Source: Patescibacteria group bacterium (GTDB taxonomy: Bacteria > Patescibacteriota > Microgenomatia > UBA8517). From it: a stretch of DNA of 64,000 bases. Made by a program: the position numbers and the translations under genes. How positions within the stretch are numbered: the stretch's first letter is position 1; the number at the start of each line of letters is the position of its first letter. The stretch covers positions 364,758 through 428,757 of the forward strand of contig JBGSJG010000004.1 of the NCBI GenBank assembly GCA_041742135.1, given 5' to 3'. The notes under the pieces are model-generated. The model saw only the letters and a program-made list of their open reading frames with translations. It searched no databases and was not told where the DNA came from. Below are positions 47,189 through 61,959 of the stretch, one piece after another.

Positions 47189-47221
47189 AAAGTTATTTAT
47201 TTTATCACGCGATACCTGCTT

Positions 47222-47854
47222 TTACATTAAGGACAGAAGATGTTGGCGTGTTGCATGAATCAAAAGTCCTGCGGATGTTTTACAAGGCTCAACATGGAGG
47301 AATGTACTACCTGAGACCATCGACATTCTTTCGTGGGCATGTTCAGTAGATTCGCTACGGGGATTATGAGCTTGAGGTAAGCAATTTTCAGACGGAACCA
47401 TTGCTAATAGAAAATGGTTTCTTGCTCTGTTGTCGGATTTAACTGGAAGAAGGATCAATTCAGCCTCGTAGGTATGTCCACTCTCAGGTCTCATTAATCT
47501 AGCAAATACTCTGCCTTCAAGATCGCGTACAATCGAATATTCTCCATCGTCGATATCCAATTTACCTTCAACAATTTCTGTCGCGAGCCGCTTAAAAACC
47601 TCAGGTTCAGGTCTGGGATCGTTTATAATTACCTCCGGGACAAGTTGCGCTGACCGTCTACCGTCATCTAGTGTCCGTATTGTCCACGGGTTTCTGCGCG
47701 GTTGGGCATTAGGATCATTCTGAATTACCTCGATCTGGTCCTCGGGGCGTGATAAAAATCGCCTAACATAACAACTAGCGGAAACATACCGCTCCTCTGT
47801 TGTCAAAGGCTCTATCTCAGGGCCTTCTTCGAAGTAAGAAAAACGCTCACTCAT
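47222..47854 (-). CDS. hypothetical protein (210 aa)
   Basis: ORF track entry with no motif. The C-terminal 50 aa are low-complexity and may be an over-extension. Confidence 0.35.
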   Translation of the reverse strand: MSERFSYFEEGPEIEPLTTEERYVSASCYVRRFLSRPEDQIEVIQNDPNAQPRRNPWTIRTLDDGRRSAQLVPEVIINDPRPEPEVFKRLATEIVEGKLDIDDGEYSIVRDLEGRVFARLMRPESGHTYEAELILLPVKSDNRARNHFLLAMVPSENCLPQAHNPRSESTEHAHERMSMVSGSTFLHVEPCKTSAGLLIHATRQHLLSLM

Positions 47855-47891
47855 ATGTCCTATAGTAACATATTTTAGCTAAAAAATGAAT

Positions 47892-48299
47892 TTATTTTGT
47901 TAAAAACTTATTAGCTACAACTCCGGCAAGGCCAAAAGCGATAGCAGAAGCAATTGTATCTGTGGGGATAACTGCCAAGGGCCAAACTGGAAGCAGAAAA
48001 ACATTTGATAAACCAATGTGTAAAAACAAGATTCCTCCGAAAAATGCGCCTATGAGAAATGACTTTTTAGGATCTTTGTTGGGAGCAAGATTTTTGATTA
48101 AGTACAAAAGAGCTGCGTTAAGAATTAGATAATCCAGTAACATCGCTTGCATTGGCGGAACTCCTTCTCGGTTGGTAATTCCTGCAAGATGAGCATCATT
48201 CCAGCCTCGGAGCAAAAACCCATGAAGAATCATGTTGCCAAGAAATATTGCTACAAAAGTAACAAGATACGCCTTAACAGTTTTAGCCTCAAGCCTCAT
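47892..48299 (-). CDS. hypothetical membrane protein (135 aa, 4 TM)
   Basis: ORF track entry with hydrophobic segments. Confidence 0.4.
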   Translation of the reverse strand: MRLEAKTVKAYLVTFVAIFLGNMILHGFLLRGWNDAHLAGITNREGVPPMQAMLLDYLILNAALLYLIKNLAPNKDPKKSFLIGAFFGGILFLHIGLSNVFLLPVWPLAVIPTDTIASAIAFGLAGVVANKFLTK

Positions 48300-48343
48300 G
48301 CTTTATTGTAACATAAGTCACGAAGATAGTTGAGGGTTTAATG

Positions 48344-48417
48344 TGGACGCTAAGGGACTCGAACCCCTGACCCCTTTCACGTCAAGAAAGTGCTCTAGCC
48401 AACTGAGCTAAGCGTCC
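48344..48417 (-). tRNA. tRNA-Val (anticodon GAC)
   Basis: Manual fold: GGACGCT acceptor pairing with AGCGTCC, D-arm GCTC-AGTTGGCTA-GAGC, anticodon stem CTTTC/GAAAG with loop TTGACGT, and a GGTTCGAGTCC T-loop. Confidence 0.85.
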
Positions 48418-48453
48418 AGTACGTGCTATTATATAACACGTACAATTTAGGCG

Positions 48454-48699
48454 CTACTCCAACACATTAGTTGCATCGGTCGTTCGTCCAGCACCTTCTA
48501 CTCTCGGGTAGACTGGCCTGTACGAAGGTAATACAACTGGACGGTCGAATTGTCCTGGCACTGCTGCCGTTGGCTTGACTTCGGATTGTACTTTTCTCAA
48601 CTGAGTCTCTGGTAATGCAGCAACCACTCGCGGATCACCTCCGAACTCTTCTGTTACTAAATCGCTTATAAATTTTGCTTCAGCTGTCATATTTTTCAC
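48454..48699 (-). CDS. hypothetical small protein (81 aa)
   Basis: ORF track entry. Pro/Val-rich, with no motif. Confidence 0.3.
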   Translation of the reverse strand: MKNMTAEAKFISDLVTEEFGGDPRVVAALPETQLRKVQSEVKPTAAVPGQFDRPVVLPSYRPVYPRVEGAGRTTDATNVLE

Positions 48700-48741
48700 C
48701 CCCTTAAACCAATAAGCAAGCTTGTTGTCGCTTCGCTCAAA

Positions 48742-48779
48742 TAAAAAAACCTCTCTGACGAGAGGTTTTGGTCTTTTTG
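48742..48779. terminator. bidirectional rho-independent terminator
   Basis: AAAAAAA-CCTCTC-TGAC-GAGAGG-TTTTGGTCTTTTT: a stem flanked by an A-run and a T-run. Confidence 0.6.
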
Positions 48780-48796
48780 TTGTTTTGGCTTATGTT

Positions 48797-48894
48797 ATAT
48801 TTCTCTCATCAGATGAAAGCCCTCTCCTGTAAGGAGGAGGGTAATCATGATGATTGTGAGAGAAATATTTATCATGTTTGTGCGTGGATTATAG
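48797..48894 (+). other. structured inverted-repeat element with a strong Shine-Dalgarno and a 15-codon mini-ORF
   Basis: Perfect 12-bp inverted repeat ATATTTCTCTCA (48797-48808) and TGAGAGAAATAT (48857-48868), with an inner hairpin CCCTCTCC-TGTAA-GGAGGAGGG. The sequence GGAGGAGGGTAATC precedes ATGATGATTGTGAGAGAAATATTTATCATGTTTGTGCGTGGATTATAG (MMIVREIFIMFVRGL). Confidence 0.3.
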
Positions 48895-48895
48895 C

Positions 48896-49516
48896 TTAGC
48901 CTGCAGATCTTTGCAAATAATGCTCACCTGAAAGTAGATACTTGGCTCCGTGTTTTTTGTAATTTGCTCCCCACATGTTTTTCTTGGCAGCGCGCTTGTT
49001 GGCGCTGGCAAGCCACACACTAGCTTTCTCAATCTTTTTACGGTAAGACTTAATAAATTCAAAGATTCTCTCCAAAAAGTAAAGCTCGTATACTGACTCT
49101 GAGGCTGGAGCCTGAAACGAGGCAATTTTGACTTCCTCAGCTAAAGCGATGGTAGCTTTCGCTGCCTTTTGAATTTCCTCGTGAATAGCTTTAATTTGGA
49201 CACGAAGCTCGGCTGTTCTTCTGGCCACGAGCGTTTCATCTTCTTGTCTGAGCCTTCGCTCCAGCAGATACATTTTTTTAAGCTTGTCGTCTTCTGAAGC
49301 TTCACCGCTATAAACGCGTTTTAGCTCTACTGACTGGCCGGGCATTATCTCACCTGAGAAGTTCTTTTTAGCTCGAAGTTCGCGGCCAAAAACTTGTTTT
49401 ATGATCTCAGCAGGCATTGGCTCAAGCAGATCTTGTTTTGCTTGTTGGCCTGCATCACGCAATAGTTCAAGAGGATTCGCGAAAGGTTTTTTTTGGTTCT
49501 GCTTCGTAGAACTCAT
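48896..49516 (-). CDS. hypothetical protein (206 aa), charged/coiled-coil-like
   Basis: ORF track entry. It precedes the trigger factor gene. Confidence 0.4.
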   Translation of the reverse strand: MSSTKQNQKKPFANPLELLRDAGQQAKQDLLEPMPAEIIKQVFGRELRAKKNFSGEIMPGQSVELKRVYSGEASEDDKLKKMYLLERRLRQEDETLVARRTAELRVQIKAIHEEIQKAAKATIALAEEVKIASFQAPASESVYELYFLERIFEFIKSYRKKIEKASVWLASANKRAAKKNMWGANYKKHGAKYLLSGEHYLQRSAG

Positions 49517-50361
49517 ATTGATGCCAGTTTATCAAGAACTTTTCTTTTAATCAAAAAGGAATTAACTGTACTTTTTTGCTCAGCCGAAATGGATTTCGGG
49601 CTCGCCGCATTTGCTATTTTCATAAATTCATCAGCTTCGGCATCACTGACTTCCATCTTTTCTTTTTGGGCAATTGCACCCAGCACAATATCAATTCTAA
49701 TAGCACTTTCAGCTTGTGCGCCGTATTCTTCACGCAAGGCTTCGCTAGTTTTATTAATAGAGGCTAAGTAAGACTCTAAGCTTAAGCCCAGTTTCTCAAG
49801 CCTCTCCAAAAGCGAGGCTAGTCTTGAATTAACCTCTTCCTCGATTAGTATTTTGGGAATGGCAAAGGTGTAGGCTGTCTGAAGTGCTTCGAGTGCCAAA
49901 TTCTCTTTTTGTTCTGGTGCTGGTGCTTTTTCTTCTTTGGCGAATCTCTCTTTGATTACTTTTTGGTAATCTCCAAGTTCAAATTCAGGTAATTCTGCTG
50001 TAGTTGCTCGCACCTCCCAGTCTTCGTTTTCGTGAGCGTGCAGTAGCTCAAATTTGGGGTACATTGCAGGAGTTAATTTATTGGCAACAATCGCGTCCGC
50101 AAAAAGCTTGGGAAGTATCTTTGCCATTGTCTTTTCGATTACATATTGTGGGTCAAGCCGTTCGCGAGCTTTGTCCACTGGAGCCATGCCGCGTCTGAAG
50201 CCGGGAACTTCTACGTTTTTCGCCAACTCTTCAAGCGTTTCGTTCCTTTTAATGTCAATTTCGTCCCATGGGATTGTGAAAGTTAGCTGTAATGTGCCAC
50301 TACCATCCCGAGACAAAGGAGTTGTCTTTTGGGCGGATTTACCGGTCTTTTTGGTTGCCAT
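49513..50361 (-). CDS. tig: trigger factor, short form lacking PPIase domain
   Basis: LQLTFTIPWDEIDIKRNETLEELAKNVEVPGFRRGMAPVDKARERL matches the ribosome-binding N-domain, including the GFR(K/R)G motif. At 282 aa it is too short to include an FKBP domain. Confidence 0.65.
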   Translation of the reverse strand: MATKKTGKSAQKTTPLSRDGSGTLQLTFTIPWDEIDIKRNETLEELAKNVEVPGFRRGMAPVDKARERLDPQYVIEKTMAKILPKLFADAIVANKLTPAMYPKFELLHAHENEDWEVRATTAELPEFELGDYQKVIKERFAKEEKAPAPEQKENLALEALQTAYTFAIPKILIEEEVNSRLASLLERLEKLGLSLESYLASINKTSEALREEYGAQAESAIRIDIVLGAIAQKEKMEVSDAEADEFMKIANAASPKSISAEQKSTVNSFLIKRKVLDKLASI

Positions 50362-50545
50362 CGGGCAATTATATCATATTAGCCCTTGTGCTGGGTCTTG
50401 AAAGTGCTGGGGTTAAAGCCTGTTCTTGCTCCGCCACCTTTGAAGTTCTGGTTTTTGATAAAACTGCTAGTCCTAAAGCCTAAAATAGCACCCGGTTTGC
50501 TTTTACTTTTTGAATAACTTTGTGGTTCTTTTTTGTCACTCATGG

Positions 50546-50953
50546 CTATTTTGCAAGCTTGTGAAAAAACATATTAACTAAAGCCAGTAGAAGCGATGAG
50601 ATTGCAGCAGTTACAAAACTGTCGATTTCAAATCCAGGTACAATTTCTGCGGCCACCATCAAAAGCAAGACGTTTACAATAAAGGCAAAAATTCCGAGCG
50701 TAAGGACGGTAAGAGGCAGTGCAATAATTTGGACCACGGGGCGCACAAACATGTTAATTACTCCAAGGACTATCGCCGCGACGAGAGTTGCCCCGAGAGT
50801 TTCAAGAGTAAAGCCTTCAATTAGGTAATCGACCACTAAAAGAGCAATAACATTTGCACAAATCCTGCCAAAAAGCTTAATTAGGCGGTCGCTTTCATCA
50901 GGGAGGTCGTGATCATCCAAGCGCTTTAGATTTTCAATTTTTGACTTTGCCAT
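50546..50953 (-). CDS. holin-family-4 / YvlD-like membrane protein
   Basis: LGVINMFVRPVVQIIALPLTVLTLGIFAFIVNVLLLMVAAEIVPGFEIDSF resembles the Phage_holin_4_2 / DUF360 family. Confidence 0.5.
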   Translation of the reverse strand: MAKSKIENLKRLDDHDLPDESDRLIKLFGRICANVIALLVVDYLIEGFTLETLGATLVAAIVLGVINMFVRPVVQIIALPLTVLTLGIFAFIVNVLLLMVAAEIVPGFEIDSFVTAAISSLLLALVNMFFHKLAK

Positions 50954-50984
50954 ACCCCAATAATGAAGAATTCGTGTTCAAATG

Positions 50985-51992
50985 TCAATTGCTTGTGTAA
51001 CTTTCAAAAAATTCCAAATCGCGCGCTACAACTGTATTCCAATCTGGCCGCATATTGTGATCCGCGCCGGGATATTTATGATATGTAACGTCCAGCTCTA
51101 GTGCGCGAAGCTTTGCCACAAGCGAGTCGCTCCAGGAAACCGGAATCGCGTCGTCCGCGGTTCCCTGGTGTAGCTGAATTGGTGCAGCAATGCGATCAAG
51201 ATAATTCGTAAAAGAATACAAGTTAACGTCATATATTTCTTCGAATTGGGCCAGCTCGCGCCTGATGAATTTCCCGCCATCAGCAGACTCATCTGTATAG
51301 TAAAGAACCGAGTAAGGAAAAGGCTTGGTAACAGGAGCCCAAAGCGTTGTGGGAATTGCGCGTTTGGTGACCGATAGAAGCGTTAGGGCCACTTGCCCGC
51401 CGTTACTATGAGCCCAGATAAATACATTTTTGCCGTCCCATTTTTCAATTGAATCAAGAGAACTAAGCATGCTAAGCGCGGTAGTATAGGTTTGAAATCT
51501 TGTTTCAAAGATATCTCCAGATTCGCTGCTTGATCCCGCGTAACCCAAAAAATCTGGGGCAACTGTGATAAAACCATTGGAAGCAAAAACAGCCGCCGCA
51601 TTTTTAGTTCCTATGCCCGTTTCGTATAAGCTTTGATCTACATAGCCTCGAAACATCAAGACTAGCGGCAAATTGTTCCCCCCAGCGGGAATATTGATTT
51701 GGCCGGTAACAATTTTATTTTGAACATCTTCAAGAGTTGGATCAAAAGAATGTTCGAACAAATAGCTTGTATACTCATCTTCTTCAGTGATAACTTCGCG
51801 AATCTCAATTTCTCGCTGGGCAATGGTCTTACTCGCAAGAGCTTCTAGCTGATATTTGGCCAGAGGTGTTGGAATGGGAGTCGGAGAAGGCGCGAAGATA
51901 AAGCTTTCTGAAGGCGCTCTGGCGATTGCAAAGCCTATCCCCCCAGCAACAATCGCAGAAACAATAATTGATATGATTACCGATTTTCCCAT
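50985..51992 (-). CDS. secreted alpha/beta-hydrolase (esterase/peptidase S9-like)
   Basis: N-terminal transmembrane/signal segment, WAHSNGG (GxSxG nucleophile elbow) and GTADDAIP...H, indicating a catalytic Ser-Asp-His triad. Confidence 0.55.
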   Translation of the reverse strand: MGKSVIISIIVSAIVAGGIGFAIARAPSESFIFAPSPTPIPTPLAKYQLEALASKTIAQREIEIREVITEEDEYTSYLFEHSFDPTLEDVQNKIVTGQINIPAGGNNLPLVLMFRGYVDQSLYETGIGTKNAAAVFASNGFITVAPDFLGYAGSSSESGDIFETRFQTYTTALSMLSSLDSIEKWDGKNVFIWAHSNGGQVALTLLSVTKRAIPTTLWAPVTKPFPYSVLYYTDESADGGKFIRRELAQFEEIYDVNLYSFTNYLDRIAAPIQLHQGTADDAIPVSWSDSLVAKLRALELDVTYHKYPGADHNMRPDWNTVVARDLEFFESYTSN

Positions 51993-52023
51993 TCACACCT
52001 ATTGTACAACCTAGTGTATAATC

Positions 52024-52311
52024 TTGGCTGTGAAAGAAAGAGCCGAAATTAGAGAGCAACGTTATTTAGATATAACGTCATATTTACTAAATTACATCAA
52101 CGAATTCCAATGGCCTCCTACCATTGATGAAATATGTCAAGATGTTGGGATTAACTCAAAAAGTTTAGTAAGGGGTTATTTAAACAAATTGGCAAACCAA
52201 GGTGTGATCGAGCGTGGTGATGGAGCAAGAGAGATTCGTTTCACGCTCAGGCCACACCCTGTAGAGTTTCAATCTACCGCTAAAGGTTTGAAATCCGGTC
52301 CAGAAGAGTAA
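52024..52311 (+). CDS. LexA-like winged-helix DNA-binding protein (no peptidase domain)
   Basis: LTERQREIL-type N-terminus: PPTIDEICQDVGINSKSLVRGYLNKLANQGVIERGDGAREIRF resembles the LexA_DNA_bind domain. Only 95 aa. Confidence 0.45.
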   Translation: MAVKERAEIREQRYLDITSYLLNYINEFQWPPTIDEICQDVGINSKSLVRGYLNKLANQGVIERGDGAREIRFTLRPHPVEFQSTAKGLKSGPEE

Positions 52312-53677
52312 ATACCCCAAATCCTCCATAAAACAAAAATGCCGAGCCTACGGCAATTGTCCTGATTAGCGATGGCCTTAAAGGTTTGGGAAGAGCAGTA
52401 TGATTCATGACAAGCACAAGTCCTGAGTAAATAAACATCGAAATTGCGTTAAGTACTGCACCTGTAATCACTAGAGCTAAAGGCTCCGTAAATCCTGCGG
52501 CAAAAATTGCACACCCTGCTAGTATTTGAATCCATAAAAAGACGTAAAAATATCTTGGCGTATTTTTAGTTTTTACTGTCTCGCTCATGATATCCAGATT
52601 TTCCGTAGCAATGCGGGCATTACTACCCAAGACGGAAAACTGGGTTCCAAAAAGCATTATTCCAGCCATGAGAAGGAAAAATGTTCCAAGCTGGGGAATT
52701 GTTCGAGTAGCTATCGTTTCGGCCTCCAGAATCACAAAATTTATACTAGATACTGTATTTGGATTTCCATAAACAGTCGAGTAAGCCAAAAGGCTAAGCA
52801 TGATCATGGTCAAGGCTCCCGTTGCCCAGAATACGATTGCGTGTTCAGTATTGATCCTCCTCCACCAAACACGATAGTTTTTGAGATTCTTCTGGGTCAT
52901 ATCAAAAGTTGTCCCCGTCAAAGAAATGTTTTCTTTATTGCCACTGAATATTGAGGTTAGTCTTCCCGAAAACTTACCCATACCATAGCCTTTTTCTTTA
53001 ACATACAAAGATTGAGCGAGGTTTAAGTTTCCTCCTGCCCCTGCATACGCCAAAGCCGCCAGAAAAGTCGCAACAGGAAGGCCTGCAGGCAAAAACCAAA
53101 AGCCCTCGCCGCTTCCCACAAGGCCTTGGGCCAAGGCTCCCCAATCCGTTGGTTTGGCAAATAGTAAAGTGACAATAAAAATAAACGGCACTCCCAATAA
53201 AATAATGCCTTTTTGGATTGTTTCTTGAGTCTTATAGACGACTGATCCTAGGCTAAAAAGTACACCCATTGAAAGAAGAAGGGCAACACCTATTGTGCCC
53301 GAGTATTCAATTCCAAAAGCTGCCGCCAATACTGTTCCACTAGCAGCGGCAATCCCCGGCCACATCCACGGAAGAAGCGTGGTAAGAATAAACCAAGGTG
53401 GGGCAAATTTGCCGTATTTTCGGGTGAGTCCTACAAAAATGCTTTCTCCAGTGACAAGTGTGTAGCGCTCTATCTCCATATTAATAAAAAACTGAAAAGT
53501 GATGCCTACAAGTGCCGCCCAAGCAAGACCTAGGCCAAAATTTGAAGCTAGATATGGCCAAAGTATGAGTTCCCCACTTCCCAGTCCCACGCCAAGAATA
53601 ATAAAACTTGGGCCAATAAGCTTTCTAATCTTCAAAGGCGAAGGCATATCTGCCTTTTTAAGTGGATCAAGACTCAT
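52280..53677 (-). CDS. Nramp-family divalent metal transporter-like membrane protein
   Basis: 11-12 transmembrane segments. The N-terminal IGPSFIILGVGLGSGELILWPYLASNFGLGLAW resembles Nramp TM1-TM2 motifs. Confidence 0.45.
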   Translation of the reverse strand: MSLDPLKKADMPSPLKIRKLIGPSFIILGVGLGSGELILWPYLASNFGLGLAWAALVGITFQFFINMEIERYTLVTGESIFVGLTRKYGKFAPPWFILTTLLPWMWPGIAAASGTVLAAAFGIEYSGTIGVALLLSMGVLFSLGSVVYKTQETIQKGIILLGVPFIFIVTLLFAKPTDWGALAQGLVGSGEGFWFLPAGLPVATFLAALAYAGAGGNLNLAQSLYVKEKGYGMGKFSGRLTSIFSGNKENISLTGTTFDMTQKNLKNYRVWWRRINTEHAIVFWATGALTMIMLSLLAYSTVYGNPNTVSSINFVILEAETIATRTIPQLGTFFLLMAGIMLFGTQFSVLGSNARIATENLDIMSETVKTKNTPRYFYVFLWIQILAGCAIFAAGFTEPLALVITGAVLNAISMFIYSGLVLVMNHTALPKPLRPSLIRTIAVGSAFLFYGGFGVFTLLDRISNL

Positions 53678-53698
53678 TACTCAGTTTAGATATAAGAG

Positions 53699-54196
53699 TC
53701 AGTTTTGTAAATCTTTGGGCAAAATTACGGATGGAGTTATGGCAGTGGTGGTGATGAACACTTCTTTTCTTTCTATTTCTTGATCCTCGTTATCAAACAA
53801 AATGACCTCAAGGACGTCGCCGTCTTTTGTTGAGTCAGTAAGCGCAATTTCTAGATTTTTAACTTGATCTTCTGATTTTTCGCTTCTGGCCAGCCCTACT
53901 CCAAGTTTTTTCACAACTACATATCCGCCTTCGCCAAAATCGGCTCGCGCGATTTTAATTATATTTCCGGGCGGCTGGCTTGCTACTTCGAGTAATGAGG
54001 TTTCTTCTGGCGAGGGAGCTGGAGTTACTCTTTTTATCGAATAAGTTTGCCTAGGTGTTTCCAGTTGGGGTTTTTTGTTAATTTTAGGCAACAGTAAAAC
54101 GGTAATGATTACGACCACGATTGTGGCTAGGCTAAAGAAAGTTTTATAGTTTTTAGCTTCTTGACTTCGGGTTTTGTTTGGTATAGTCTGAGACAT
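53699..54196 (-). CDS. membrane-anchored hypothetical protein
   Basis: The track ORF starts at 54274. The internal Met at 54196 (MSQTIPNKTRSQEAKNYKTFFSLATIVVVIITVLLLP) removes the overlap with the divergent small ORF. Confidence 0.35.
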   Translation of the reverse strand: MSQTIPNKTRSQEAKNYKTFFSLATIVVVIITVLLLPKINKKPQLETPRQTYSIKRVTPAPSPEETSLLEVASQPPGNIIKIARADFGEGGYVVVKKLGVGLARSEKSEDQVKNLEIALTDSTKDGDVLEVILFDNEDQEIERKEVFITTTAITPSVILPKDLQN

Positions 54197-54455
54197 GGCC
54201 GATGAAATAAACGAACCAATTTCTGTTTCTTTGGTATATGATAGCAAAACCGGTAAAAGCATTCCTCGTAGCATTGTTTGGAAAAATAGGCTCTATCGAG
54301 TAAGTAAGCTTGGCCTTCACCATAGCTATCGCGAAGGGGATCTCTTGCTTCATGTTTTTTCTGTAGTTTGCGGAAGCGTTTTGTTTAAGTTAGTTTTTGA
54401 CACACGCTCGCTCAACTGGCGCTTGGGCGAGATCTCGGAAAGCTTTGCAGGTTGA
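54195..54455 (+). CDS. hypothetical small protein (86 aa)
   Basis: ORF track entry (MADEINEPISVSLVYDSKTGKSIPRSIVWKNRLYRVSKLGLHHSYREGDLLLHVF). The coding-like composition carries no motif. Confidence 0.3.
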   Translation: MADEINEPISVSLVYDSKTGKSIPRSIVWKNRLYRVSKLGLHHSYREGDLLLHVFSVVCGSVLFKLVFDTRSLNWRLGEISESFAG

Positions 54456-54489
54456 CGTTTACGGCGTGTTTTTGAGATAATACTCGACC

Positions 54490-54795
54490 ATGCAAGAACA
54501 GCAATCGGCTTGTAGAGATTGTGAAGACGAAATAATTAGGGCGCAGGTTAGTGTCGTTAAGCGCCAAGTTTACGATCTGTGCAACAGGCCAGAAACAAGA
54601 GATGTTACAAGAGATTGTCCGCTAAGGCAATCTTATCAGCCCGGGCTTACATTTATGGTTTCCTATGAACATCCCAGCAGAACGGAAATTGGAGACAGAA
54701 ATGAAATCACAGTAATTCATCCAGAAGTATGTAGAGCTGAGGTTATTCATCGATACGACGGGGACAAATTTTCAGGCAAAACTTGGAAATTGTAG
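54490..54795 (+). CDS. hypothetical small Cys-containing protein (101 aa)
   Basis: ORF track entry with CRDC...C...C, a possible zinc ribbon. Confidence 0.3.
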   Translation: MQEQQSACRDCEDEIIRAQVSVVKRQVYDLCNRPETRDVTRDCPLRQSYQPGLTFMVSYEHPSRTEIGDRNEITVIHPEVCRAEVIHRYDGDKFSGKTWKL

Positions 54796-55016
54796 ATGGA
54801 GTGCCTGCTTGTCGCGTGTGGATCGGCGAAGCAATAAAGGTGAGAACGAAAGCAGAACGCAGAAAGGATGATAGTGGTGTGGACATTGTCGAAAGTGAAC
54901 ATGGAATTGACGTAGTAAAGTCGGAAAGAGTTCCGGTTAGGGCAAGCATACTAAAAAGTTTTTCAAGTTTACTAGAAGAATCATTCACAATTGGCGGAGC
55001 AGAATTTGGAGATTAA
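54783..55016 (+). CDS. hypothetical small protein (77 aa)
   Basis: ORF track entry. It overlaps the previous ORF by 13 nt. Confidence 0.25.
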   Translation: MEIVDGVPACRVWIGEAIKVRTKAERRKDDSGVDIVESEHGIDVVKSERVPVRASILKSFSSLLEESFTIGGAEFGD

Positions 55017-55022
55017 GAATCC

Positions 55023-55322
55023 TTACTGAATAATATCTTTTCTATCCTTGGTTGGGATGTAAGTTGCATGTTTAGGATGATTCCCACCAAAACTTGTTCC
55101 GTGAACTCTCGAGGTTCGTAGTTGCCCTTTCGGACCCTCTTCCATCAGTGTGCCTCCTGTAATTTCAACTATTAAATCAGCAGTTGCTTGCACTGTTTCT
55201 GGACTATCAGCTTTGATCGCGTATTCACAAATCACACCATCTTGCATTGGGATGATTTCTCCCTGAGTCACTTCCGCGTGGTGAACTATAATTCCTCCTC
55301 TTTTTGGTAGTTCGGCTGTCAT
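55023..55322 (-). CDS. hypothetical protein (about 100 aa)
   Basis: The start was chosen at the ATG at 55322 (MTAELPKRGGIIVHHAEV), leaving an 80-bp divergent region before dinB. The track start at 55454 would overlap dinB. Confidence 0.35.
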   Translation of the reverse strand: MTAELPKRGGIIVHHAEVTQGEIIPMQDGVICEYAIKADSPETVQATADLIVEITGGTLMEEGPKGQLRTSRVHGTSFGGNHPKHATYIPTKDRKDIIQ

Positions 55323-55368
55323 GTGCCGCAAATATAGCACCACGTATTTTGCTTTGCAAGATCTACTC

Positions 55369-55396
55369 TTGACTTCGTGTTTTGTTTGGGTATATA
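55369..55396 (+). promoter_or_regulatory. sigma70-like promoter for dinB (TTGACT, 16-nt spacer, TATATA)
   Basis: TCTTGACTTCGTGTTTTGTTTGGGTATATAAAAAGCTATG. The -10 element ends only 7 nt before the annotated ATG. Confidence 0.35.
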
Positions 55397-55403
55397 AAAA
55401 GCT

Positions 55404-56645
55404 ATGGATACACGTATTCTTGGCTTTAATCCCGCAGAACCTTTGACAATGCACATAGACATCAATTCCTGCTTTGCAACCATTGAGCAGCAGGCAGACC
55501 CGCGCCTTCGTGGCCTCCCGATTGCGGTTGCTGCGTACGACTCGCCTCGGGGGTGTATCCTAGCGGCTTCTATTGAGGCTAAAAAATTAGGGATAAAAAC
55601 CGGCATGCTTGTGGGGCAAGGCAAAAGTATTTATCCAAAACTTATCGTCAAAACTCCGGACAGCCAAAAATATAGATTTATTCATCAGGCCCTAAAGAAT
55701 TTACTACTTGAGTATTCCCCGACTGTTTGTCCTAAATCTATTGATGAATTTGTGGTTAATTTTGAAAATCACGCAATTTTGGCCAAAGCGGGCTTGCTGA
55801 GCATTGCGCAAGAGATCAAAAATCGCATCCGATCTGAAATTGGTGAGTGGATTAGTGTGTCTATTGGTATTGGGCCAAACCGGTTCTTGGCAAAAACGGC
55901 GGCTGGGATGAAAAAGCCAGATGGCTTGGTTCAGATTACTAAAGAGAATTTTTACGAAGCTTATCAAACTCTTAGTTTGCGCGATCTTTGCGGTATAAAC
56001 TTTCGAAACGAGGCTAGGCTTAACTCTGTTGGAATTGGCTCGGTTTGTGAATTTTTCGCAAGCGACTTACCCCGCCTGCAAGCTGCCTTTCGCTCTGTAA
56101 ACGCTTATTACTGGTTCTTGCGGCTTCGTGGCTGGGAAGTGGATGGCGTTGAATTTGGCCGTAAGTCTTTTGGTAATTCTTATTCTATTCCTCAAAATTA
56201 CACTACAACTGCCGAACTCTCGCCTATTTTGGCCAAGCTTGTGAATAAATCAGCTAGCCGCATGAGGCGAGCCGGTATGAGCGCGTACGGTGTACACGTA
56301 TTTGCAAATTTTAAAGGTGGCGGGTTTTGGCATCACGGAGAGCGAACGGCCGAACCGATGTTTTACACAAGTGAAATTTTTTCTCGCGCAGTTGGCATTT
56401 TATCCAAAGCAAACATTTATTCGCCAGTTCATACGTTGGCGGTGAGTTGCTATGACTTGACAGACTCAAAGGCCTACCAACTTGCTTTGTTTGAAAACAG
56501 GACCAAGAAGAAATATTTGGCCGAAACTATGGATAAAGTAAACAACCACTTCGGAAGTTTTGTTTTAACTACGGCCAACATGCTGGGAGCCGAAAACGCG
56601 GTTCACGATCGAATTGGCTTTGGCAGAAGTGCTTTGGAAGTTTAA
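55404..56645 (+). CDS. dinB: Y-family DNA polymerase (DNA polymerase IV)
   Basis: MHIDINSCFATIEQQADPRLRGLPIAVAA...ILAASIEAKKLGIKTGM plus palm, finger and little-finger organisation. The start could alternatively be at the Met at 55452. Confidence 0.85.
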   Translation: MDTRILGFNPAEPLTMHIDINSCFATIEQQADPRLRGLPIAVAAYDSPRGCILAASIEAKKLGIKTGMLVGQGKSIYPKLIVKTPDSQKYRFIHQALKNLLLEYSPTVCPKSIDEFVVNFENHAILAKAGLLSIAQEIKNRIRSEIGEWISVSIGIGPNRFLAKTAAGMKKPDGLVQITKENFYEAYQTLSLRDLCGINFRNEARLNSVGIGSVCEFFASDLPRLQAAFRSVNAYYWFLRLRGWEVDGVEFGRKSFGNSYSIPQNYTTTAELSPILAKLVNKSASRMRRAGMSAYGVHVFANFKGGGFWHHGERTAEPMFYTSEIFSRAVGILSKANIYSPVHTLAVSCYDLTDSKAYQLALFENRTKKKYLAETMDKVNNHFGSFVLTTANMLGAENAVHDRIGFGRSALEV

Positions 56646-57160
56646 AAAATTACGCTATCGCCGACTTTTAACTCATGTTTTTGCACAAACCCCGCATTTA
56701 CTTCCAAGACCATATCTACAGGGTCATTTGGAATGTATTTTTTAAGTTCGTTATCAGCCACGCCCGGCTCGGGTACGGCATTTTCGGCAAAGCCAACTAT
56801 TTTGCCGTCGGCAATCCAGATGATATCAATTGGAAAAACCATCCCTTTCATCCAAAATACTACCGGACGAGGGCTTGAATATATAAACAACATGCCATTG
56901 TTCTCAGGTAGGCTTGAATATTTCGCAAGCCCGATACGCATAGGCTCCGGAGTATCAACTACTTCAACATTTATAGAAACCTCGCCGATTTGAAGTGACG
57001 GCATGGGCGTTGCTGTGGGAGTGCTTGGCACGATCACCCCGCCTTTTGGTTTAACAAAAAGTATAAAAAACGCTAAAGCTATTAAAGCAACTATAAAAAT
57101 AGTGAGAAGAACGCGTTTACTTGGCATTTTGGTGCGAAACCCCCATGACACTAGTTTCAA
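56642..57160 (-). CDS. DUF192-family protein (secreted)
   Basis: MRIGLAKYSSLPENNGMLFIY...VFWMKGMVFPIDIIWIADGKIVGF...MVLEVNAGFV matches the DUF192 pattern. Confidence 0.6.
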   Translation of the reverse strand: MKLVSWGFRTKMPSKRVLLTIFIVALIALAFFILFVKPKGGVIVPSTPTATPMPSLQIGEVSINVEVVDTPEPMRIGLAKYSSLPENNGMLFIYSSPRPVVFWMKGMVFPIDIIWIADGKIVGFAENAVPEPGVADNELKKYIPNDPVDMVLEVNAGFVQKHELKVGDSVIF

Positions 57161-57317
57161 GATCCAGAGTCGAAGCTGCTAATCGGTGATTGTAGGAGCT
57201 TACACTAAGGTAAACCAGAAGAACAAGCAAAAATACCATCCCAGGAATCATCAAGATTACGATCTTTCCAAGCTGGAAATCGTGAGCTTTAAGAATATGA
57301 ATATTGTGATCGTTCAC
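57117..57317 (-). CDS. hypothetical small membrane protein (66 aa)
   Basis: ORF track entry with one transmembrane segment. Confidence 0.25.
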   Translation of the reverse strand: MNDHNIHILKAHDFQLGKIVILMIPGMVFLLVLLVYLSVSSYNHRLAASTLDLETSVMGVSHQNAK

Positions 57318-57460
57318 AATTCATTCTAAAGCTAAAGTGCCCCTCGTTGCAATCGTGAGGATTCAGTTAGAAATGTTATTTAGTGTCGGTTTTGCCGAGA
57401 GTTTTGGTAAGCGATAAATTTGCCTCTTGCAAACACATACATGGGTAGTTAAATTTAATT

Positions 57461-58117
57461 ATGGCTTCAGGAAAAAGTAAAAAAGGTTTTAAATTAGGTT
57501 CTTGGTTCTTTCTTGCTGTTATTTTGTGTGGGCTTTTGATTGGATTGGTTCTTATTAATTCAGGCACGAGCCTTTTTGCTGGTGCTTCTTCGCAAAGTGC
57601 TTCCTCGACCATGATGAGGTATATGTCAAACAATCGCACCGCTAGCTCATGTAAGGCGCTTTTTGCAAGACTCCAAGCATCTTATGGCAAAAGCTGTCCA
57701 ACTGGAATACAACCCTTGAATGCTCCACAAGATGCCTATGACCCTATAGCTGATGTTAACAAAGACAAGACTGTTAACATTTACGATTTTAGCGATATTG
57801 CAAAGAATTACAGAAATGAGTCTTGGTGCAGCACTAAGCTAGCTGACACTACTAATCCTTGTGCACCAGCAGATACAAGAAGTATGGCTTGTAACGTCTT
57901 GTATTCTGCCCTCTCGACAAGTTTGGGGAAGTCGTGTGGACAAAGTGGTTACGACGACCGAGTCGATTTCAATAACGATAACAACGTAAATACTAGCGAC
58001 TTCAGCATTTATGCCGCAAACTTCCAGCAAAATGGCTGGTGCGAGAGGTATTACAGGCTTCCGTCTACTTGTTCAGTTACCAACTCAGGATCTGTTTCAG
58101 CTCCTAAGAATAGGTAA
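57461..58117 (+). CDS. secreted protein with two dockerin-like Ca-binding repeats and conserved Cys
   Basis: N-terminal transmembrane/signal segment. Two ~45-aa repeats, L..S.GKSC...D..DVNKDKTVNIYDFSDIAKNY....WC and ...DFNNDNNVNTSDFSIYAANF...WC, have Asp/Asn at loop positions 1, 3, 5, 9 and 12, as in dockerin EF-hand-like repeats. Confidence 0.5.
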   Translation: MASGKSKKGFKLGSWFFLAVILCGLLIGLVLINSGTSLFAGASSQSASSTMMRYMSNNRTASSCKALFARLQASYGKSCPTGIQPLNAPQDAYDPIADVNKDKTVNIYDFSDIAKNYRNESWCSTKLADTTNPCAPADTRSMACNVLYSALSTSLGKSCGQSGYDDRVDFNNDNNVNTSDFSIYAANFQQNGWCERYYRLPSTCSVTNSGSVSAPKNR

Positions 58118-58159
58118 CATCTTCATCTAATTTATCATTAAAATGTAGATTTTGTTGTG

Positions 58160-58245
58160 TGCCGAGGACAGGAGTCGAACCTGCACGAGGTATAAGCCCC
58201 ACATGGTCCTAAACCATGCGCGTCTGCCAGTTCCGCCACCTCGGC
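58160..58245 (-). tRNA. tRNA-Leu (anticodon TAG), long variable arm
   Basis: Manual fold: GCCGAGG acceptor pairing with CCTCGGC, anticodon stem CATGG/CCATG with loop TTTAGGA, a long variable arm and T-arm GCAGG-TTCGACT-CCTGT. Confidence 0.8.
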
Positions 58246-58287
58246 TCAATGTCAGCTATATTATACATTGTTTGATAGAATTTATGG

Positions 58288-59274
58288 GTGGAGCGGATAA
58301 AAGGTCCAGAAATTTCTGTTACTTCGGAAGCGGGTATGGTTCGTTTTTTGCCTGTCATGGATCAGCGAGGCACACCTGTGCCAACTGGTGAAGGTTCGTT
58401 TATGTTTTCTGAGACCCGCTTTTTAGGAGCCTTGCCCGCCATTCGCCAGCATCTTATCCACCTTTTGCCTGCTGGTAATTGGATAACCGTGAGAGGCAGT
58501 GTGATTGATGAAGGACCAACCGCCGTGCTTCGAATATTAGGCTCAAAATCGTTTCTACCTGATGCTATCCCCGTCGTGTACGAGGCAAACAATGATTGGA
58601 CAGTGCATGTTGGCCGTAACCCCGCTTTGCCGACTGAGGTTAACTTTGGGAAACCCGATCCTCTTGTTAAAGTCAAATTTACAGGGCATTCTGATCAGGT
58701 AGTTGCCCAGCTGGTCCACGGGGAAGTTACAGCCAGTCCAGATGAAAACCTAGTGGTTGAGACATCTGATGTTTTGATTCGTGATATGTTTAGCCAGCGC
58801 AGCGTCGTGGCTTGTAGCGAACCTCAAAGCATGCAAGTGACAAGTGGTGTTTACAACAACAAAACACACCGTGAGGAAAAATTCAGTTATAGGGCAACCT
58901 GCATGGTGATCGCAGAAGCCAGAGAGCTTAAAAAGGCTCGGCCTAAGGGTGGGTTTAAGACAAGACGTGACTCGGTAAGATTGTCTGTTGCAACAATTGC
59001 AGATTCAGATAACTTGTTAAGGATTTATCACGGGCAATGGCATTACGCCAGAAACTTGGACAAAAGCCAACGCAGAATGCTTTCGCTGCATTTGGCTAAG
59101 GGTGTTTTGGATGCGAACGGGACGGAGGTCATTAACCCTGATGATTATTTAAAGCAGTTAGACCTTGAAACGATTTGCGGAACTTTTAATGAGCCGCACG
59201 ATTCAAGCCTCAGACCCCTTGTCCGGGCTATTCACAAACGGATTTTTCCGTTGTCACAAAACCAGAAAAAGTAA
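58288..59274 (+). CDS. hypothetical protein (328 aa), higher GC than surroundings
   Basis: ORF track entry with no motif recognised. A strong terminator follows. Confidence 0.4.
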   Translation: MERIKGPEISVTSEAGMVRFLPVMDQRGTPVPTGEGSFMFSETRFLGALPAIRQHLIHLLPAGNWITVRGSVIDEGPTAVLRILGSKSFLPDAIPVVYEANNDWTVHVGRNPALPTEVNFGKPDPLVKVKFTGHSDQVVAQLVHGEVTASPDENLVVETSDVLIRDMFSQRSVVACSEPQSMQVTSGVYNNKTHREEKFSYRATCMVIAEARELKKARPKGGFKTRRDSVRLSVATIADSDNLLRIYHGQWHYARNLDKSQRRMLSLHLAKGVLDANGTEVINPDDYLKQLDLETICGTFNEPHDSSLRPLVRAIHKRIFPLSQNQKK

Positions 59275-59340
59275 TTTCGACATAGTTTGTTATATTGCCT
59301 AGAAGGCTGTTTTAGACTACACTTTCACAAATCTAACCAA

Positions 59341-59372
59341 CAAAAAACCCCGAGGTGAATCGGGGTCTTTTG
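59341..59372. terminator. bidirectional rho-independent terminator
   Basis: AAAAAA-CCCCGA-GGTGAA-TCGGGG-TCTTTT. Confidence 0.65.
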
Positions 59373-59463
59373 AGTCTAAATTCCGACGCTCAGACCCGAA
59401 AAACGGGCTTTGCCTCGAAACGTGTTGATACTATAGTCTATAGCTATAGGTTTGTCAAGTTTG

Positions 59464-60216
59464 TCAGCGTTTACGGGCTAATATGAAGATTGAAGGTCCA
59501 AAATTAATCTTCGCAAGAGGCTCTTGAGTCAACTTCTCCAAGCTCATTAGTATTGGCATAGGAGCAATGGACTTAAGTGCACTACTTCTTACGTTTGAAA
59601 CAGAACGTTTCTCGACTATTGTAAAGCCATGATCTTTAAGGCTTTTCTCTACAATATCTGGGTGATGGTTAAGAAAAAGTATGGAATTGTTTTTTATGTT
59701 TTTTTTGCTCCGCTTATCAAGAGGGAAAATATCAAGGGGAAAAGTGAAGTTGCCGTTTAGTAGGTTTTGCAGCATCGCCTTGCCATGAAGTTTGTTTGCA
59801 AACTCTACAATAAAATAACCGCCCTTATCAAGATGTCTGCTTGCGGCAGTTATCGCGTCATCGGGGTCTTTGATGTGGTGCATGACACGGACCAGCAAGA
59901 CCACATCGTATTTTTTAGCCTTGATTTTACTGTCCATGTTTTGAAGAGTGGAATTTACTAAATGAAGGTTTGCCTGCCCTTTTAGAGTCATTCTGGCACG
60001 GGTCAAAAGAGATCTGGATGGCTCGACTAAAGTTATGCTTTTGGCAAACTTCGAGTAAGTATTGGCAAGGCGGCCAAAACCTGCCCCGATATCAACAACA
60101 TTTTTTTTGTTGCCGATTTTTGTAAAAAAGCTCTCGACGGCGTGGACCTCGCTTAAGTGTTCGTAGTTTCTGGCGTCCCAGTAACTTGGGTAGTCGTAGC
60201 CGTCGTAAGCTGCCAT
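59464..60216 (-). CDS. class I SAM-dependent methyltransferase
   Basis: VVDIGAGFGRLANTY (motif I) and DVVLLVRVMHHI. The start was moved to the ATG at 60216 (MAAYDGYDY) to avoid a 50-nt overlap with the next gene. Confidence 0.65.
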   Translation of the reverse strand: MAAYDGYDYPSYWDARNYEHLSEVHAVESFFTKIGNKKNVVDIGAGFGRLANTYSKFAKSITLVEPSRSLLTRARMTLKGQANLHLVNSTLQNMDSKIKAKKYDVVLLVRVMHHIKDPDDAITAASRHLDKGGYFIVEFANKLHGKAMLQNLLNGNFTFPLDIFPLDKRSKKNIKNNSILFLNHHPDIVEKSLKDHGFTIVEKRSVSNVRSSALKSIAPMPILMSLEKLTQEPLAKINFGPSIFILARKR

Positions 60217-60217
60217 A

Positions 60218-60862
60218 TTACTCCATGTCCTCGATGAAGCTTCGGACACCAATAGCCCAAGAGCCATTTGATAGAGGCGTGTATTTGGACATTATGTCCT
60301 CTGGGGTGAGTAGCCCTTTGTTAATATATTCCTTCTTAAGCCCAGCTGAGACAACTTTGATTGCTTCTTCGAACGAGCTAAACCCGAGTGTTCCACGACT
60401 ATGTATTCCCCAGCCCCAGCAGTTAAAGCTCCCCTCTGGAATAAATTTACACAGATTACTCTCTTGCTGAGCAATTGCTGTAATTAGCCTGAAATCAATT
60501 TCCTCTTCGTCTGCTACTTGGACAATATAATCAGCGTGCGGGAGAAGAGTTGAATTGTATCTGTTTAAGTATTTTTTCACAATCTCAACTCGTGCGTCAT
60601 TTGTGCCTACGCGAGACTCGATGCTTGGCATCGTGTCGGGAAGTGCTGCGAAGATGTTTGCCCCAGATTTAGCACCAGTAGTATTTGCAGCCAATACCGC
60701 AGTTGGGCTTGTTGTTTGCTGGCTAGCTACAAAGATTAATGCAAAAACACTTACCAGTAAAGCAACTGGAGTTAATACCAAAAAAACTACCAAAAGTGAG
60801 AGTCCCTTAAACACAGAAAAACCACCGTTTTCCATCTGAGATAAGAATGCCATAGATGGCAA
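60218..60862 (-). CDS. membrane-anchored protein with lysozyme-like / SLT-like segment (weak)
   Basis: N-terminal transmembrane segment, and LITAIAQQESNLCKF...NCWGWGI loosely resembling the lytic transglycosylase ES-motif region. Confidence 0.3.
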   Translation of the reverse strand: MPSMAFLSQMENGGFSVFKGLSLLVVFLVLTPVALLVSVFALIFVASQQTTSPTAVLAANTTGAKSGANIFAALPDTMPSIESRVGTNDARVEIVKKYLNRYNSTLLPHADYIVQVADEEEIDFRLITAIAQQESNLCKFIPEGSFNCWGWGIHSRGTLGFSSFEEAIKVVSAGLKKEYINKGLLTPEDIMSKYTPLSNGSWAIGVRSFIEDME

Positions 60863-60885
60863 GTTGAGTCAAATTAGGGAGTAGC

Positions 60886-61620
60886 CTAATTTGATGAGTT
60901 TTCTTGTGCACTTGCATGTAAATCCCACACCTCACTGTAGCTAAGACTTCTCCCTCCGCTCGGGTTTTCAAACCTTGCCATGTCTCGCCACCATGTGGGA
61001 TAGTCGACTGGTTCTGTATCGGCACACACACTTGGGTCTGGCCCAATACAGATTTCGACCTCTTCAATTTTTTTGCTGTTGAGCCTATCAATTGAACCAT
61101 CCTCGTTTCTTACAATCCAGCCCCATCTGTTGGCTGTTTCAAAAGAGATTTCTATTGTTTCTTCAACGTGGTCGATCGAGCGAAACATGTGCTGACGGTT
61201 TGTTGTATCGATTGCAAGATAAGGGCCTTCCCATGCTTCGTTTCTAAAAATCCAAACAGTTTTGCCTACATCAGCCGGAGACATAACTGCTACCCCATCT
61301 AGTATTGGTGAACTTGGATCCATTGTGGAGAGCACAATGCCTTTATTGCCGGCAACTTCTTGCATCACCTCAGGGTTGTACCAAACCGCATTGCCTTCAT
61401 TGTGAATAGGAGCTGGCTCCATCCAAGTCTCGTAGGTAGGTAATCCTGGAATAAAAATTCCGCTTTGACAATAGCCATGTCTTAGCTCAGACAAATCACT
61501 TCTGTCCCAATTTCTTAGATCAAGATTTGCCTCGCAATCTTCTGCAGATACGTGGGATAGCCCGACGATAGCACTAAATCCCACAGCTACAGCTAATCGA
61601 CTAAAACCTTTTCTTTCCAT
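60886..61620 (-). CDS. secreted hypothetical protein (Cys-containing)
   Basis: The start was moved to the ATG at 61620 (MERKGFSRLAVAVGFSAIVGLSHVSA, a signal peptide) because the track start at 61731 overlaps tRNA-Lys. Confidence 0.4.
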   Translation of the reverse strand: MERKGFSRLAVAVGFSAIVGLSHVSAEDCEANLDLRNWDRSDLSELRHGYCQSGIFIPGLPTYETWMEPAPIHNEGNAVWYNPEVMQEVAGNKGIVLSTMDPSSPILDGVAVMSPADVGKTVWIFRNEAWEGPYLAIDTTNRQHMFRSIDHVEETIEISFETANRWGWIVRNEDGSIDRLNSKKIEEVEICIGPDPSVCADTEPVDYPTWWRDMARFENPSGGRSLSYSEVWDLHASAQENSSN

Positions 61621-61673
61621 AGGCAGAACAGTGAGCTTACGTGAAGATATTCTTACAATCAAGAAGGTAATTG

Positions 61674-61745
61674 TGATCCCGGGAGGGCTCGAACCTCCAA
61701 CCATTGCCTTAAGAGGGCACTGCTCTACCATTGAGCTACGGGACC
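61674..61745 (-). tRNA. tRNA-Lys (anticodon CTT)
   Basis: Manual fold: GGTCCCG acceptor pairing with CGGGATC, D-arm GCTC-AATGGTA-GAGC, anticodon loop CTCTTAA and T-arm GGAGG-TTCGAGC-CCTCC. Confidence 0.75.
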
Positions 61746-61750
61746 GCGAG

Positions 61751-61823
61751 TGACCCAGGAAGGACTCGAACCTTCAACCTAACGGTTAGAAACCGTTTGC
61801 TCTATCCATTGAGCTACTGGGCC
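61751..61823 (-). tRNA. tRNA-Arg (anticodon TCT)
   Basis: Manual fold: GGCCCAG acceptor pairing with CTGGGTC, anticodon stem AACGG/CCGTT with loop TTTCTAA, and T-arm GAAGG-TTCGAGT-CCTTC. Confidence 0.85.
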
Positions 61824-61857
61824 GTAATCGACCAGTTGCCAAGGGACAAGCTTGCCT

Positions 61858-61878: not shown

Positions 61879-61959
61879 TTATTTTAGCCTAAAACTGTTA
61901 TATTTTACATTCTTTGCCCATAAAATGAAAATCATGACAAAAAAGCCTATACTGAAATT

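Follow-up and report, generated by a model that had tools for sequence, protein, structure and literature searches.

Organization of the locus

We analyzed a 64-kb stretch of DNA from a Patescibacteria group bacterium (contig JBGSJG010000004.1; the whole stretch is hereafter called the window), in which three small plus-strand open reading frames (ORFs), designated ORF1, ORF2, and ORF3, lie upstream of dinB, the gene for a Y-family DNA polymerase. An earlier reading made from the letters alone (the sequence-only reading) had described these ORFs as a tandem cassette with elevated GC content, converging on a gene of ~100 aa and placed between a LexA-like regulator and dinB. The arrangement itself is confirmed. 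ORF1, ORF2, and ORF3 encode 86, 101, and 77 aa, respectively, the last from a TTG start, and ORF2 and ORF3 overlap by 13 nt. The convergent gene, which we call P99, runs on the minus strand from an ATG at 55322 to a stop at 55023 (99/100 aa), and a LexA-domain protein and dinB flank the group, the former 1.9 kb from the ORFs with two minus-strand genes between. All three ORFs are also called by a public gene caller on the Logan assembly SRR28170474 (L001), which is identical to the window across 6509 nt. In the following list of features, L029 denotes the contig with the second-closest ORF1 homolog found (74% identity), pN/pS is the ratio of nonsynonymous to synonymous differences, and AF2 stands for AlphaFold2.

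52024-52311, plus strand: LexA-N-terminal-like winged-helix protein of 95 aa (Pfam LexA_DNA_bind, 2e-10)
54159-54187, plus strand: predicted promoter and candidate operator of ORF1 (TTGACT, 54161-54166; operator TTCGGGTTTTGTTTGGTA, 54166-54183; -10 box TATAGT, 54182-54187)
54195-54455, plus strand: ORF1, putative standalone ImuB-C-type small β protein of 86 aa (homologs, pN/pS, AF2 model, hhalign)
54452-54481, plus strand: predicted sigma-70-like promoter of ORF2/ORF3, TTGACG-18-GATAAT with TG (promoter scan)
54490-54795, plus strand: ORF2, N-terminal part (~96 native residues) of a ~175-aa gene (aligns with residues 1-98 of the L029 ORF)
54776-54782, plus strand: frameshift, 1-nt deletion (GGCAAAA-CTTGG in the window, GGCAGAACCTTAG in L029; frame shift -1)
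54783-55016, plus strand: ORF3, C-terminal part (residues ~99-175) of the same gene (aligns with residues 99-174 of the L029 ORF)
55023-55322, minus strand: P99, orphan gene of 99 aa (codon log-odds 0.31; within a ~355-nt insertion relative to L029)
55331-55359, minus strand: promoter-like site of P99, TTGCAA-17-TATATT with TG, 8 nt before the ATG (promoter scan, consensus match only)
55367-55398, plus strand: predicted promoter and candidate operator of dinB, second copy (TTGACT, 55369-55374; operator TTCGTGTTTTGTTTGGGT, 55374-55391; -10 box TATATA/TATAAA)
55404-56645, plus strand: dinB, Y-family DNA polymerase of 413 aa (Pfam IMS, 7.7e-32; IMS_C, 5.3e-11)

The reported rise in GC content disappears on measurement. 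The GC fraction of positions 54195-55322 is 0.429, slightly below the mean of 0.434 for the window, and ranks at the 41st percentile among segments of equal size (standard deviation 0.02). What is unusual at the ORF cluster is the composition of the plus strand, where positive GC skew and purine richness are seen, as expected from plus-strand coding.

ORF1 is conserved beside a Y-family polymerase

The polymerase downstream of the ORFs retains the catalytic Asp and Asp-Glu residues, located by inspection in HIDINSCFATIEQ and SIDEF. It scores below the cut-offs of the NCBIfam Pol IV models and is therefore a divergent Y-family enzyme. Its C-terminus (56440-56642) contains a clamp-binding motif (QLxLF), a segment similar to the N-terminus of RecA (KKYLAETMDKVNNHFGSFVL; RecA-NT-like), and a DRIGFG tail. 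Clamp, RecA-NT-like, and tail motifs have been described for GeoPolY-like enzymes (PMC6511836), and all three elements are conserved in 23 related loci introduced below and in Geobacter, with the tail reading DRIAFG in most relatives. Across these sequences the segment after QLxLF follows the pattern L-x-x-A-h-D-x-h-N-x-x-F/W-G-x-F, whose likeness to the RecA N-terminus was recognized by eye.

Using the 413-aa DinB-like protein, we retrieved 26 polymerase-anchored loci from GTDB species genomes, many of them labeled Woesebacteria, Microgenomates, WWE3, Saccharibacteria, or Patescibacteria, and about one third labeled uncultured Gammaproteobacteria or Pseudomonadales. An ORF1 homolog lies directly upstream of the polymerase, on the same strand, in 23 of the 26 (tblastn, 31-70% identity), and its end overlaps the polymerase start or falls within 28 nt of it in 19 of these 23. 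Homologs of ORF1 are also present in contigs L028-L034, and those anchored on ORF1 as L028, L030, and L034 display the same order, ORF1 upstream of the polymerase. The metagenome scan anchored on ORF1 gave four true loci and a spurious one (L035), which was rejected as a 714-aa repeat protein sharing only the string LHHSYKEGD. In the window itself, ORF1 and dinB are separated by ~950 nt. Conservation and co-occurrence with the polymerase thus hold for ORF1 and fail for ORF2 and ORF3, for which, as for P99, none of the 26 loci has a counterpart.

The ORF1 family ranges from 76 to 99 aa. In an alignment of 24 sequences, Trp29 and His53 are invariant, Trp75 is nearly so (at least 90%), and the columns of Arg32, Lys38, and Arg46 are, by inspection, basic in most members. 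The AF2 model of ORF1 has seven β strands at a predicted local distance difference test score (pLDDT) of 88.9. From its gene order and protein conservation, we predict that ORF1 is a conserved gene accessory to the Y-family polymerase beside it.

ORF1 has the features of a standalone ImuB-C protein

PMC3765255 presents ImuB-C as a β-rich domain of ~80 residues in which a C-terminal Trp and two or more basic residues are conserved, its prototype being GSU0042 of G. sulfurreducens; standalone versions are said there to be encoded mostly beside DinB and LexA, and the supplement annotates GSU0040-0043 as SRAP, LexA, ImuBC, and DinB in that order. A 2026 survey describes the domain as a novel β-barrel without relatives in the PDB (PMC12926913), and lexA-imuB-C-polY operons encoding an active polymerase with a RecA-NT-like motif have been reported (PMC6511836).

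The best-ranked plasmid match of the window polymerase is the polY gene of Geobacter anodireducens pSD (L036), where the genes run SRAP, full-length LexA, an 84-aa hypothetical protein, and PolY, the same order as GSU0040-0043. From this order, not from sequence, we infer that the 84-aa gene is the GSU0042 ortholog. Profile comparison of the ORF1 family with the 84-aa protein gives an hhalign probability of 97.4% (E 1.2e-11) over 81 of its 84 residues, while none of 30 shuffled versions of the target exceeds 1.6% and unrelated small proteins stay below 1%. Since ORF1 matches the profile of a Geobacter gene in the GSU0042 position, it is predicted to be an ImuB-C-type polymerase accessory protein, here in standalone form. 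Its other properties, namely a length of ~80 aa, a predominantly β fold, the C-terminal Trp, and the basic residues, agree with those of standalone ImuB-C proteins. No structural matches to the ORF1 model were found. In the pSD record, the SRAP gene (854-1524) and the polymerase (2489-3717, unannotated there) are each split into two overlapping ORFs, apparently by frameshifts. A tblastn search of plasmids with ORF1 and the Geobacter ImuB-C protein found only a Pelobacter copy, which lies outside a polymerase context.

A small β protein encoded ahead of a Y-family polymerase could instead be a subunit of the UmuD or YolD type (SH3-like) or a member of Pfam DUF6504, and faint matches lean in that direction: 6 of the 24 family members match DUF6504 (best E 0.0021) and 1 of the 24 matches YolD (E 0.11). 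Each of these matches, however, falls under its gathering threshold, as does that of ORF1 itself to DUF6504 (PF20114; 13.4 bits, E 0.094, against a threshold of 24.2 bits). No S24 peptidase domain was found in ORF1, and the end-to-end profile match goes to the Geobacter gene in the ImuB-C position. We regard a UmuD, YolD, or DUF6504 identity as very unlikely. DUF6504, a name not mentioned in the literature searched, may itself belong to the ImuB-C superfamily as one of its branches.

A direct-repeat operator candidate precedes ORF1 and dinB

ORF1 and dinB are preceded by nearly identical promoter regions. A 23-nt repeat occurs twice in the window, at 54159-54181 and 55367-55389, with 96% identity between the copies, where none would be expected. 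Between the -35 and -10 boxes lies the putative operator, TTCGGGT-N4-TTCGGGT, a direct repeat whose period is 11 nt. This is the position expected for a repressor such as the Patescibacteria LexA, so ORF1 and dinB would be co-regulated despite lying 950 nt apart. The -10 box of ORF1 ends 7 nt before the ATG, a leaderless-type spacing, and with -10 boxes ~7 nt from the ATG the ORF1 and dinB mRNAs are probably leaderless. If so, the weak Shine-Dalgarno sequences remarked on in the sequence-only reading would be explained.

Upstream of the ORF1 homologs in related loci, the consensus is cTTGAC-TTCGGGTTTTATTCGGGT. A matrix built from such sites finds scores of at least 17.5 upstream of the ORF1 homolog in 22 of 27 related loci, the sites mostly ending 11-17 nt before the ATG, and turns up few sites of similar score elsewhere in ~295 kb of locus sequence. 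The dinB copy in the window scores 23.3. A second copy before dinB is also present in L029 and L027, where dinB is likewise separated from ORF1, and this duplication in the window, L029, and L027 would keep dinB under the same control. L012, which lacks ORF1, has a site before dinB. Sites recovered by the matrix without having been used in its training are the ones in L012, L018, L019, and L034, together with the second site in L027 and, in L029, the copy before dinB.

Direct-repeat LexA motifs are known from Alphaproteobacteria (GTTC-N7-GTTC) and Balneolaeota, and a Patescibacteria LexA motif is cited among such cases (PMC7739468). The candidate operator of the window resembles these as an 11-nt-period direct repeat overlapping the promoters of translesion polymerase genes. 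The 95-aa LexA-like protein consists of the DNA-binding domain; an S24 autopeptidase domain is absent, and there is no room for one. No operator site was found upstream of its gene. Full-length LexA is encoded directly upstream of the ORF1 homolog in L017 (368-745) and L021 (4998-5546), giving the canonical lexA-imuB-C-polY order. These two are among the few loci without a TTCGG-type site scoring at least 12 upstream of ORF1, which suggests that they use a different operator.

The ORF1 promoter is also overlapped from the other strand. A minus-strand gene for a membrane protein (53699-54196, 165 aa, ATG at 54196) starts 2 nt inside the ATG of ORF1, and its first ~13 codons (MSQTIPNKTRSQE) correspond, in reverse complement, to the ORF1 promoter and putative operator, so that one stretch of DNA would serve as operator, promoter, and divergent coding sequence. 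The homolog of this gene in L002 has the same arrangement (MQTKPE...).

ORF1, ORF2/ORF3, P99, and dinB each have a promoter-like sequence of their own, which speaks against a single three-gene cassette. The ORF2/ORF3 promoter is accompanied by no operator-matrix site scoring at least 9, and the ORF1-ORF2 intergenic sequence that holds this promoter is conserved with L029. The earlier suggestion of a small-protein operon or stress module tied to the SOS response thus survives for ORF1, as a predicted polymerase accessory gene with an SOS-like operator, and not for ORF2 and ORF3.

The region encodes proteins rather than a structured RNA

The sequence-only reading had also raised the possibility that the ORFs are accidental features of a structured non-coding RNA, a view that draws on the several open frames, the lack of clear Shine-Dalgarno sites, and the positive GC skew. 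Searches of the whole window with Rfam 15 returned no family at its gathering score; the best permissive matches within 53500-55700 have E values of 4.4-5.6 and 14.8-16.7 bits, against cut-offs of 49-81 bits, so that even at E 10 the matches are at chance level. On neither strand does 54197-55025 fold more stably than its dinucleotide shuffles (z of -0.18 and +0.51). Codon usage, scored as log-odds trained on 27 long ORFs of the window, is positive only in the annotated frame of ORF1 (0.17), ORF2 (0.12), ORF3 (0.34), and likewise P99. All three ORFs score above the 99th percentile of non-coding frames (-0.035); for true coding chunks, the 5th percentile lies at 0.12.

Comparison with L029 points the same way. 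The pN/pS ratio of ORF1 is 0.18, and the dN/dS ratio (ω) is 0.15 for ORF2 and 0.29 for ORF3, similar to the 0.20 obtained for the N-terminus of the polymerase. The ORF1 protein is conserved down to 31% identity, at which synonymous sites are saturated. Rfam, folding, codon, and dN/dS results thus all tell against an RNA, a reading that we find barely credible; the 54.2-55.0 kb region is protein-coding.

ORF2 and ORF3 are halves of one frameshifted gene

In L029, ORF1 is followed after 34 nt by a single ORF of 174 aa and, after a further 31 nt, by dinB. The 174-aa product aligns end to end with ORF2 and then ORF3 at 55% identity, and the alignment passes through the junction FSGKT|LEIVDGV. ORF2 ends prematurely after the frameshift, and the TTG taken as the start of ORF3 is, in the intact gene, a Leu codon within the reading frame. 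The cysteines remarked on earlier in ORF2 are present, with Cys8 and Cys11 forming the CxxC motif and Cys31, Cys43, and Cys81 following; the five conserved between ORF2/ORF3 and the L029 protein are Cys8, Cys11, Cys31, Cys43, and Cys108. On this alignment, ORF2 and ORF3 are to be read as one gene rather than as two of three separate ones. The 1-nt deletion is found in the Logan assembly as well.

This gene, ORF2/ORF3, is rare. An exhaustive HMMER search with ORF2 against 1.84 billion representative proteins recovered nothing beyond ORF2 itself and the L029 protein, apart from two candidates, P0014 and P0015, which were rejected as large repetitive proteins, the latter of the insect-cuticle type. 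ORF2/ORF3 has no match in Pfam, PHROGs, PADLOC, or the PDB; scanning JGI metagenome contigs and IMG/VR by pattern yielded no hits; and the AF2 model of the intact homolog is unusable (pLDDT 43.5).

Small head-to-tail ORFs with the 13-nt overlap typical of coupled pairs, and with stress genes nearby, had invited the idea of a toxin-antitoxin-like or defense cassette made up of three independent genes for small proteins. This idea does not fit the continuous 174-aa ORF of L029, in which the junction is aligned through. Models of toxin-antitoxin, defense, and phage families are all without a match, and ORF1 belongs with the polymerase, most relatives having ORF1 and dinB without the middle gene. 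We consider such a cassette highly improbable.

A different question is whether the split reflects inactivation. Both halves appear to be under purifying selection relative to L029, at the ω values given above, and have good codon scores; the shift falls at a short A run, and the 13-nt overlap contains an in-frame TTG. These features would be compatible with a programmed -1 frameshift, termination-reinitiation, or an error of sequencing or assembly. The site (GGC AAA ACT TGG), however, lacks an X XXY YYZ slippery heptamer, and a run of four A residues is too short for transcriptional slippage. The L029 copy is intact and in frame, needing no frameshift; over the shared sequence there is no base difference between the NCBI-derived window and the Logan assembly, though the two may share reads; and a very recent inactivation would also leave ω low. 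An explanation of this type, other than a pseudogene, therefore appears unlikely, though it is the alternative that we take most seriously. With no slippery heptamer present, the split is most simply read as a plain frameshift, and ORF2/ORF3 in this genome is most likely a recent pseudogene.

P99 and the variable ORF1-dinB junction

Relative to L029, the window contains an extra ~355 nt at about 55014-55368, which holds P99 and its promoter-like site; P99 is absent from L029, where the 31 nt before dinB are all that follows the 174-aa gene. P99 forms a singleton cluster and has no matches in Pfam, NCBIfam, PHROGs, PADLOC, the PDB, viral contigs (IMG/VR), or related loci, no exhaustive search having been made. 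Residues 4-29 of P99 (55236-55313, ELPKRGGIIVHHAEVTQGEIIPMQDG) show a weak similarity over 26 residues to residues 66-91 of ORF2 (54685-54762, EIGDRNEITVIHPEVCRAEVIHRYDG). The shuffle p value is 0.005 when the window copy is used but only 0.066 for that of L029, and the hhalign probability is 4%. We did not accept homology; the likeness is probably due to chance, though it could be a remnant of common origin.

Other loci have different sequences at the ORF1-dinB junction. It holds a gene for a 133-aa coiled-coil protein on the opposite strand in L002 (5603-6004), an 84-aa reverse gene in L027 (5654-5908), a gene of the PD-(D/E)XK nuclease family in L017 (1114-1600; PDDEXK_3, Pfam 3.5e-22), and a 98-nt palindromic repeat in L023 (5902-6005). 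The junction may be an insertion hotspot. A bolder proposal is that it is a preferred landing site for new small partners or regulators of ImuB-C and PolY, with ORF2/ORF3 as an unseen accessory factor that may, for example, sense metal or redox state, and with P99, in view of its faint local likeness to ORF2/ORF3, possibly included; we think this doubtful.

Elsewhere in the window, according to the public gene call, two ORFs downstream of the module have no confident Pfam domain: a 328-aa ORF (58288-59274, plus strand) and a 218-aa ORF (57461-58117, plus strand), for which a faint dockerin match is all that was seen. Eight tRNA genes lie within 47117-63738, all on the minus strand, five of them clustered at 61.7-63.7 kb. 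An 86-nt long-arm tRNA at 58160-58245, minus strand, is located between two unknown genes.

Discussion

Conserved gene order and upstream sites show that the predicted imuB-C-type gene and the Y-family polymerase gene are genetically coupled across Patescibacteria, with one candidate operator in common. The locus is in all likelihood an imuB-C/polY SOS module, a kind of module already known, interrupted here by lineage-specific genes.

Its closest parallel is the GSU0042-GSU0043 or GeoPolY-like arrangement of Geobacter. Shared features are an all-β protein of ~85 aa encoded directly upstream of a Y-family polymerase that bears the catalytic residues, a polymerase C-terminus with clamp, putative RecA-NT-like, and tail motifs, the lack of both imuA and dnaE2 nearby, and, as a prediction for the window, SOS-type control, with lexA adjacent in two Patescibacteria relatives. 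The host differs, Patescibacteria being a group without mention in PMC3765255 and PMC6511836. The window cluster also lacks lexA and SRAP and has a truncated LexA-like winged-helix protein 1.9 kb away; its two genes stand ~950 nt apart, with lineage-specific genes between them and an operator copy each; and its putative operator is a direct repeat within the promoter spacer.

The ImuA-ImuB-DnaE2 mutasome, found for example in Mycobacterium tuberculosis, is a damage-inducible accessory polymerase system that depends on RecA/ImuA (PMC6511836, PMC12926913). It likewise places an ImuB-C domain beside a Y-family fold. In the window, by contrast, the putative ImuB-C is a separate protein and the Y-family enzyme keeps its catalytic residues; since ImuA and DnaE2 are absent from the cluster, this enzyme would itself have to carry out synthesis. 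Pol V (UmuD'2C) and the Bacillus YqjW-YqjX/YolD systems resemble the locus in having the gene of a small β subunit just before that of a Y-family polymerase, and in being under SOS control and having a polymerase tail with a RecA-binding motif, both of which are predictions for the window. The small subunit of the window is non-homologous to theirs, lacks an S24 or SH3-like core, and implies no autoproteolytic activation.

We propose that the region represents the front half of a Patescibacteria (Woesebacteria-like) damage-tolerance module that was pulled apart by later gene insertions. A LexA-type repressor bound to the direct repeat would hold ORF1 and dinB off until damage occurs. In most relatives, ORF1 directly precedes and often overlaps the polymerase gene, so the two products would be made together. 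By analogy with the Geobacter lexA-imuB-C-polY operon and with ImuB within the ImuA-ImuB-DnaE2 mutasome, ORF1 would bind the polymerase, with the contact probably close to the conserved tail at the C-terminus, beyond the clamp-binding and RecA-NT-like motifs. ORF1 would then act as a non-catalytic small subunit that helps, together with RecA, to load or activate the polymerase at lesions, and the combination of RecA on the RecA-NT-like motif, the clamp on QLxLF, and ORF1 could bring about damage-induced translesion synthesis. ORF2/ORF3, a Cys-containing protein gene with its own predicted promoter, and P99 would be later insertions, the former decaying in this genome.

Several points weigh against parts of this interpretation. 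The ImuB-C identity rests on the Geobacter protein and not on direct comparison with the C-terminal domain of ImuB; ORF1 and the Geobacter 84-aa protein each stay below Pfam thresholds, and the DUF6504 matches are confined to a minority of the family and weak. The RecA-NT-like segment was assigned by eye. Most of the sites scored with the operator matrix had also served to train it, leaving only the six untrained sites listed above as independent, and neither a full-length LexA nor RecA is among the proteins encoded in the 64-kb window. The ORF2/ORF3 frameshift rests on a single read set, and the gene may still function as two pieces. P99 is without any comparative support.

None of these findings overturns current understanding. 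They do correct the public annotation, in which two of the three annotated genes are to be read as a single frameshifted gene, and they offer a function-level annotation for a family of ~85-aa "hypothetical proteins" without a Pfam domain that is apparently widespread in Patescibacteria. The candidate SOS operator TTCGGGT-N4-TTCGGGT, located in leaderless-type promoters, could be used for mapping the damage regulon in uncultured bacteria. If the assignment of ORF1 is right, the imuB-C/polY variant of the mutasome would extend to the Candidate Phyla Radiation, organisms with a minimal repair repertoire.

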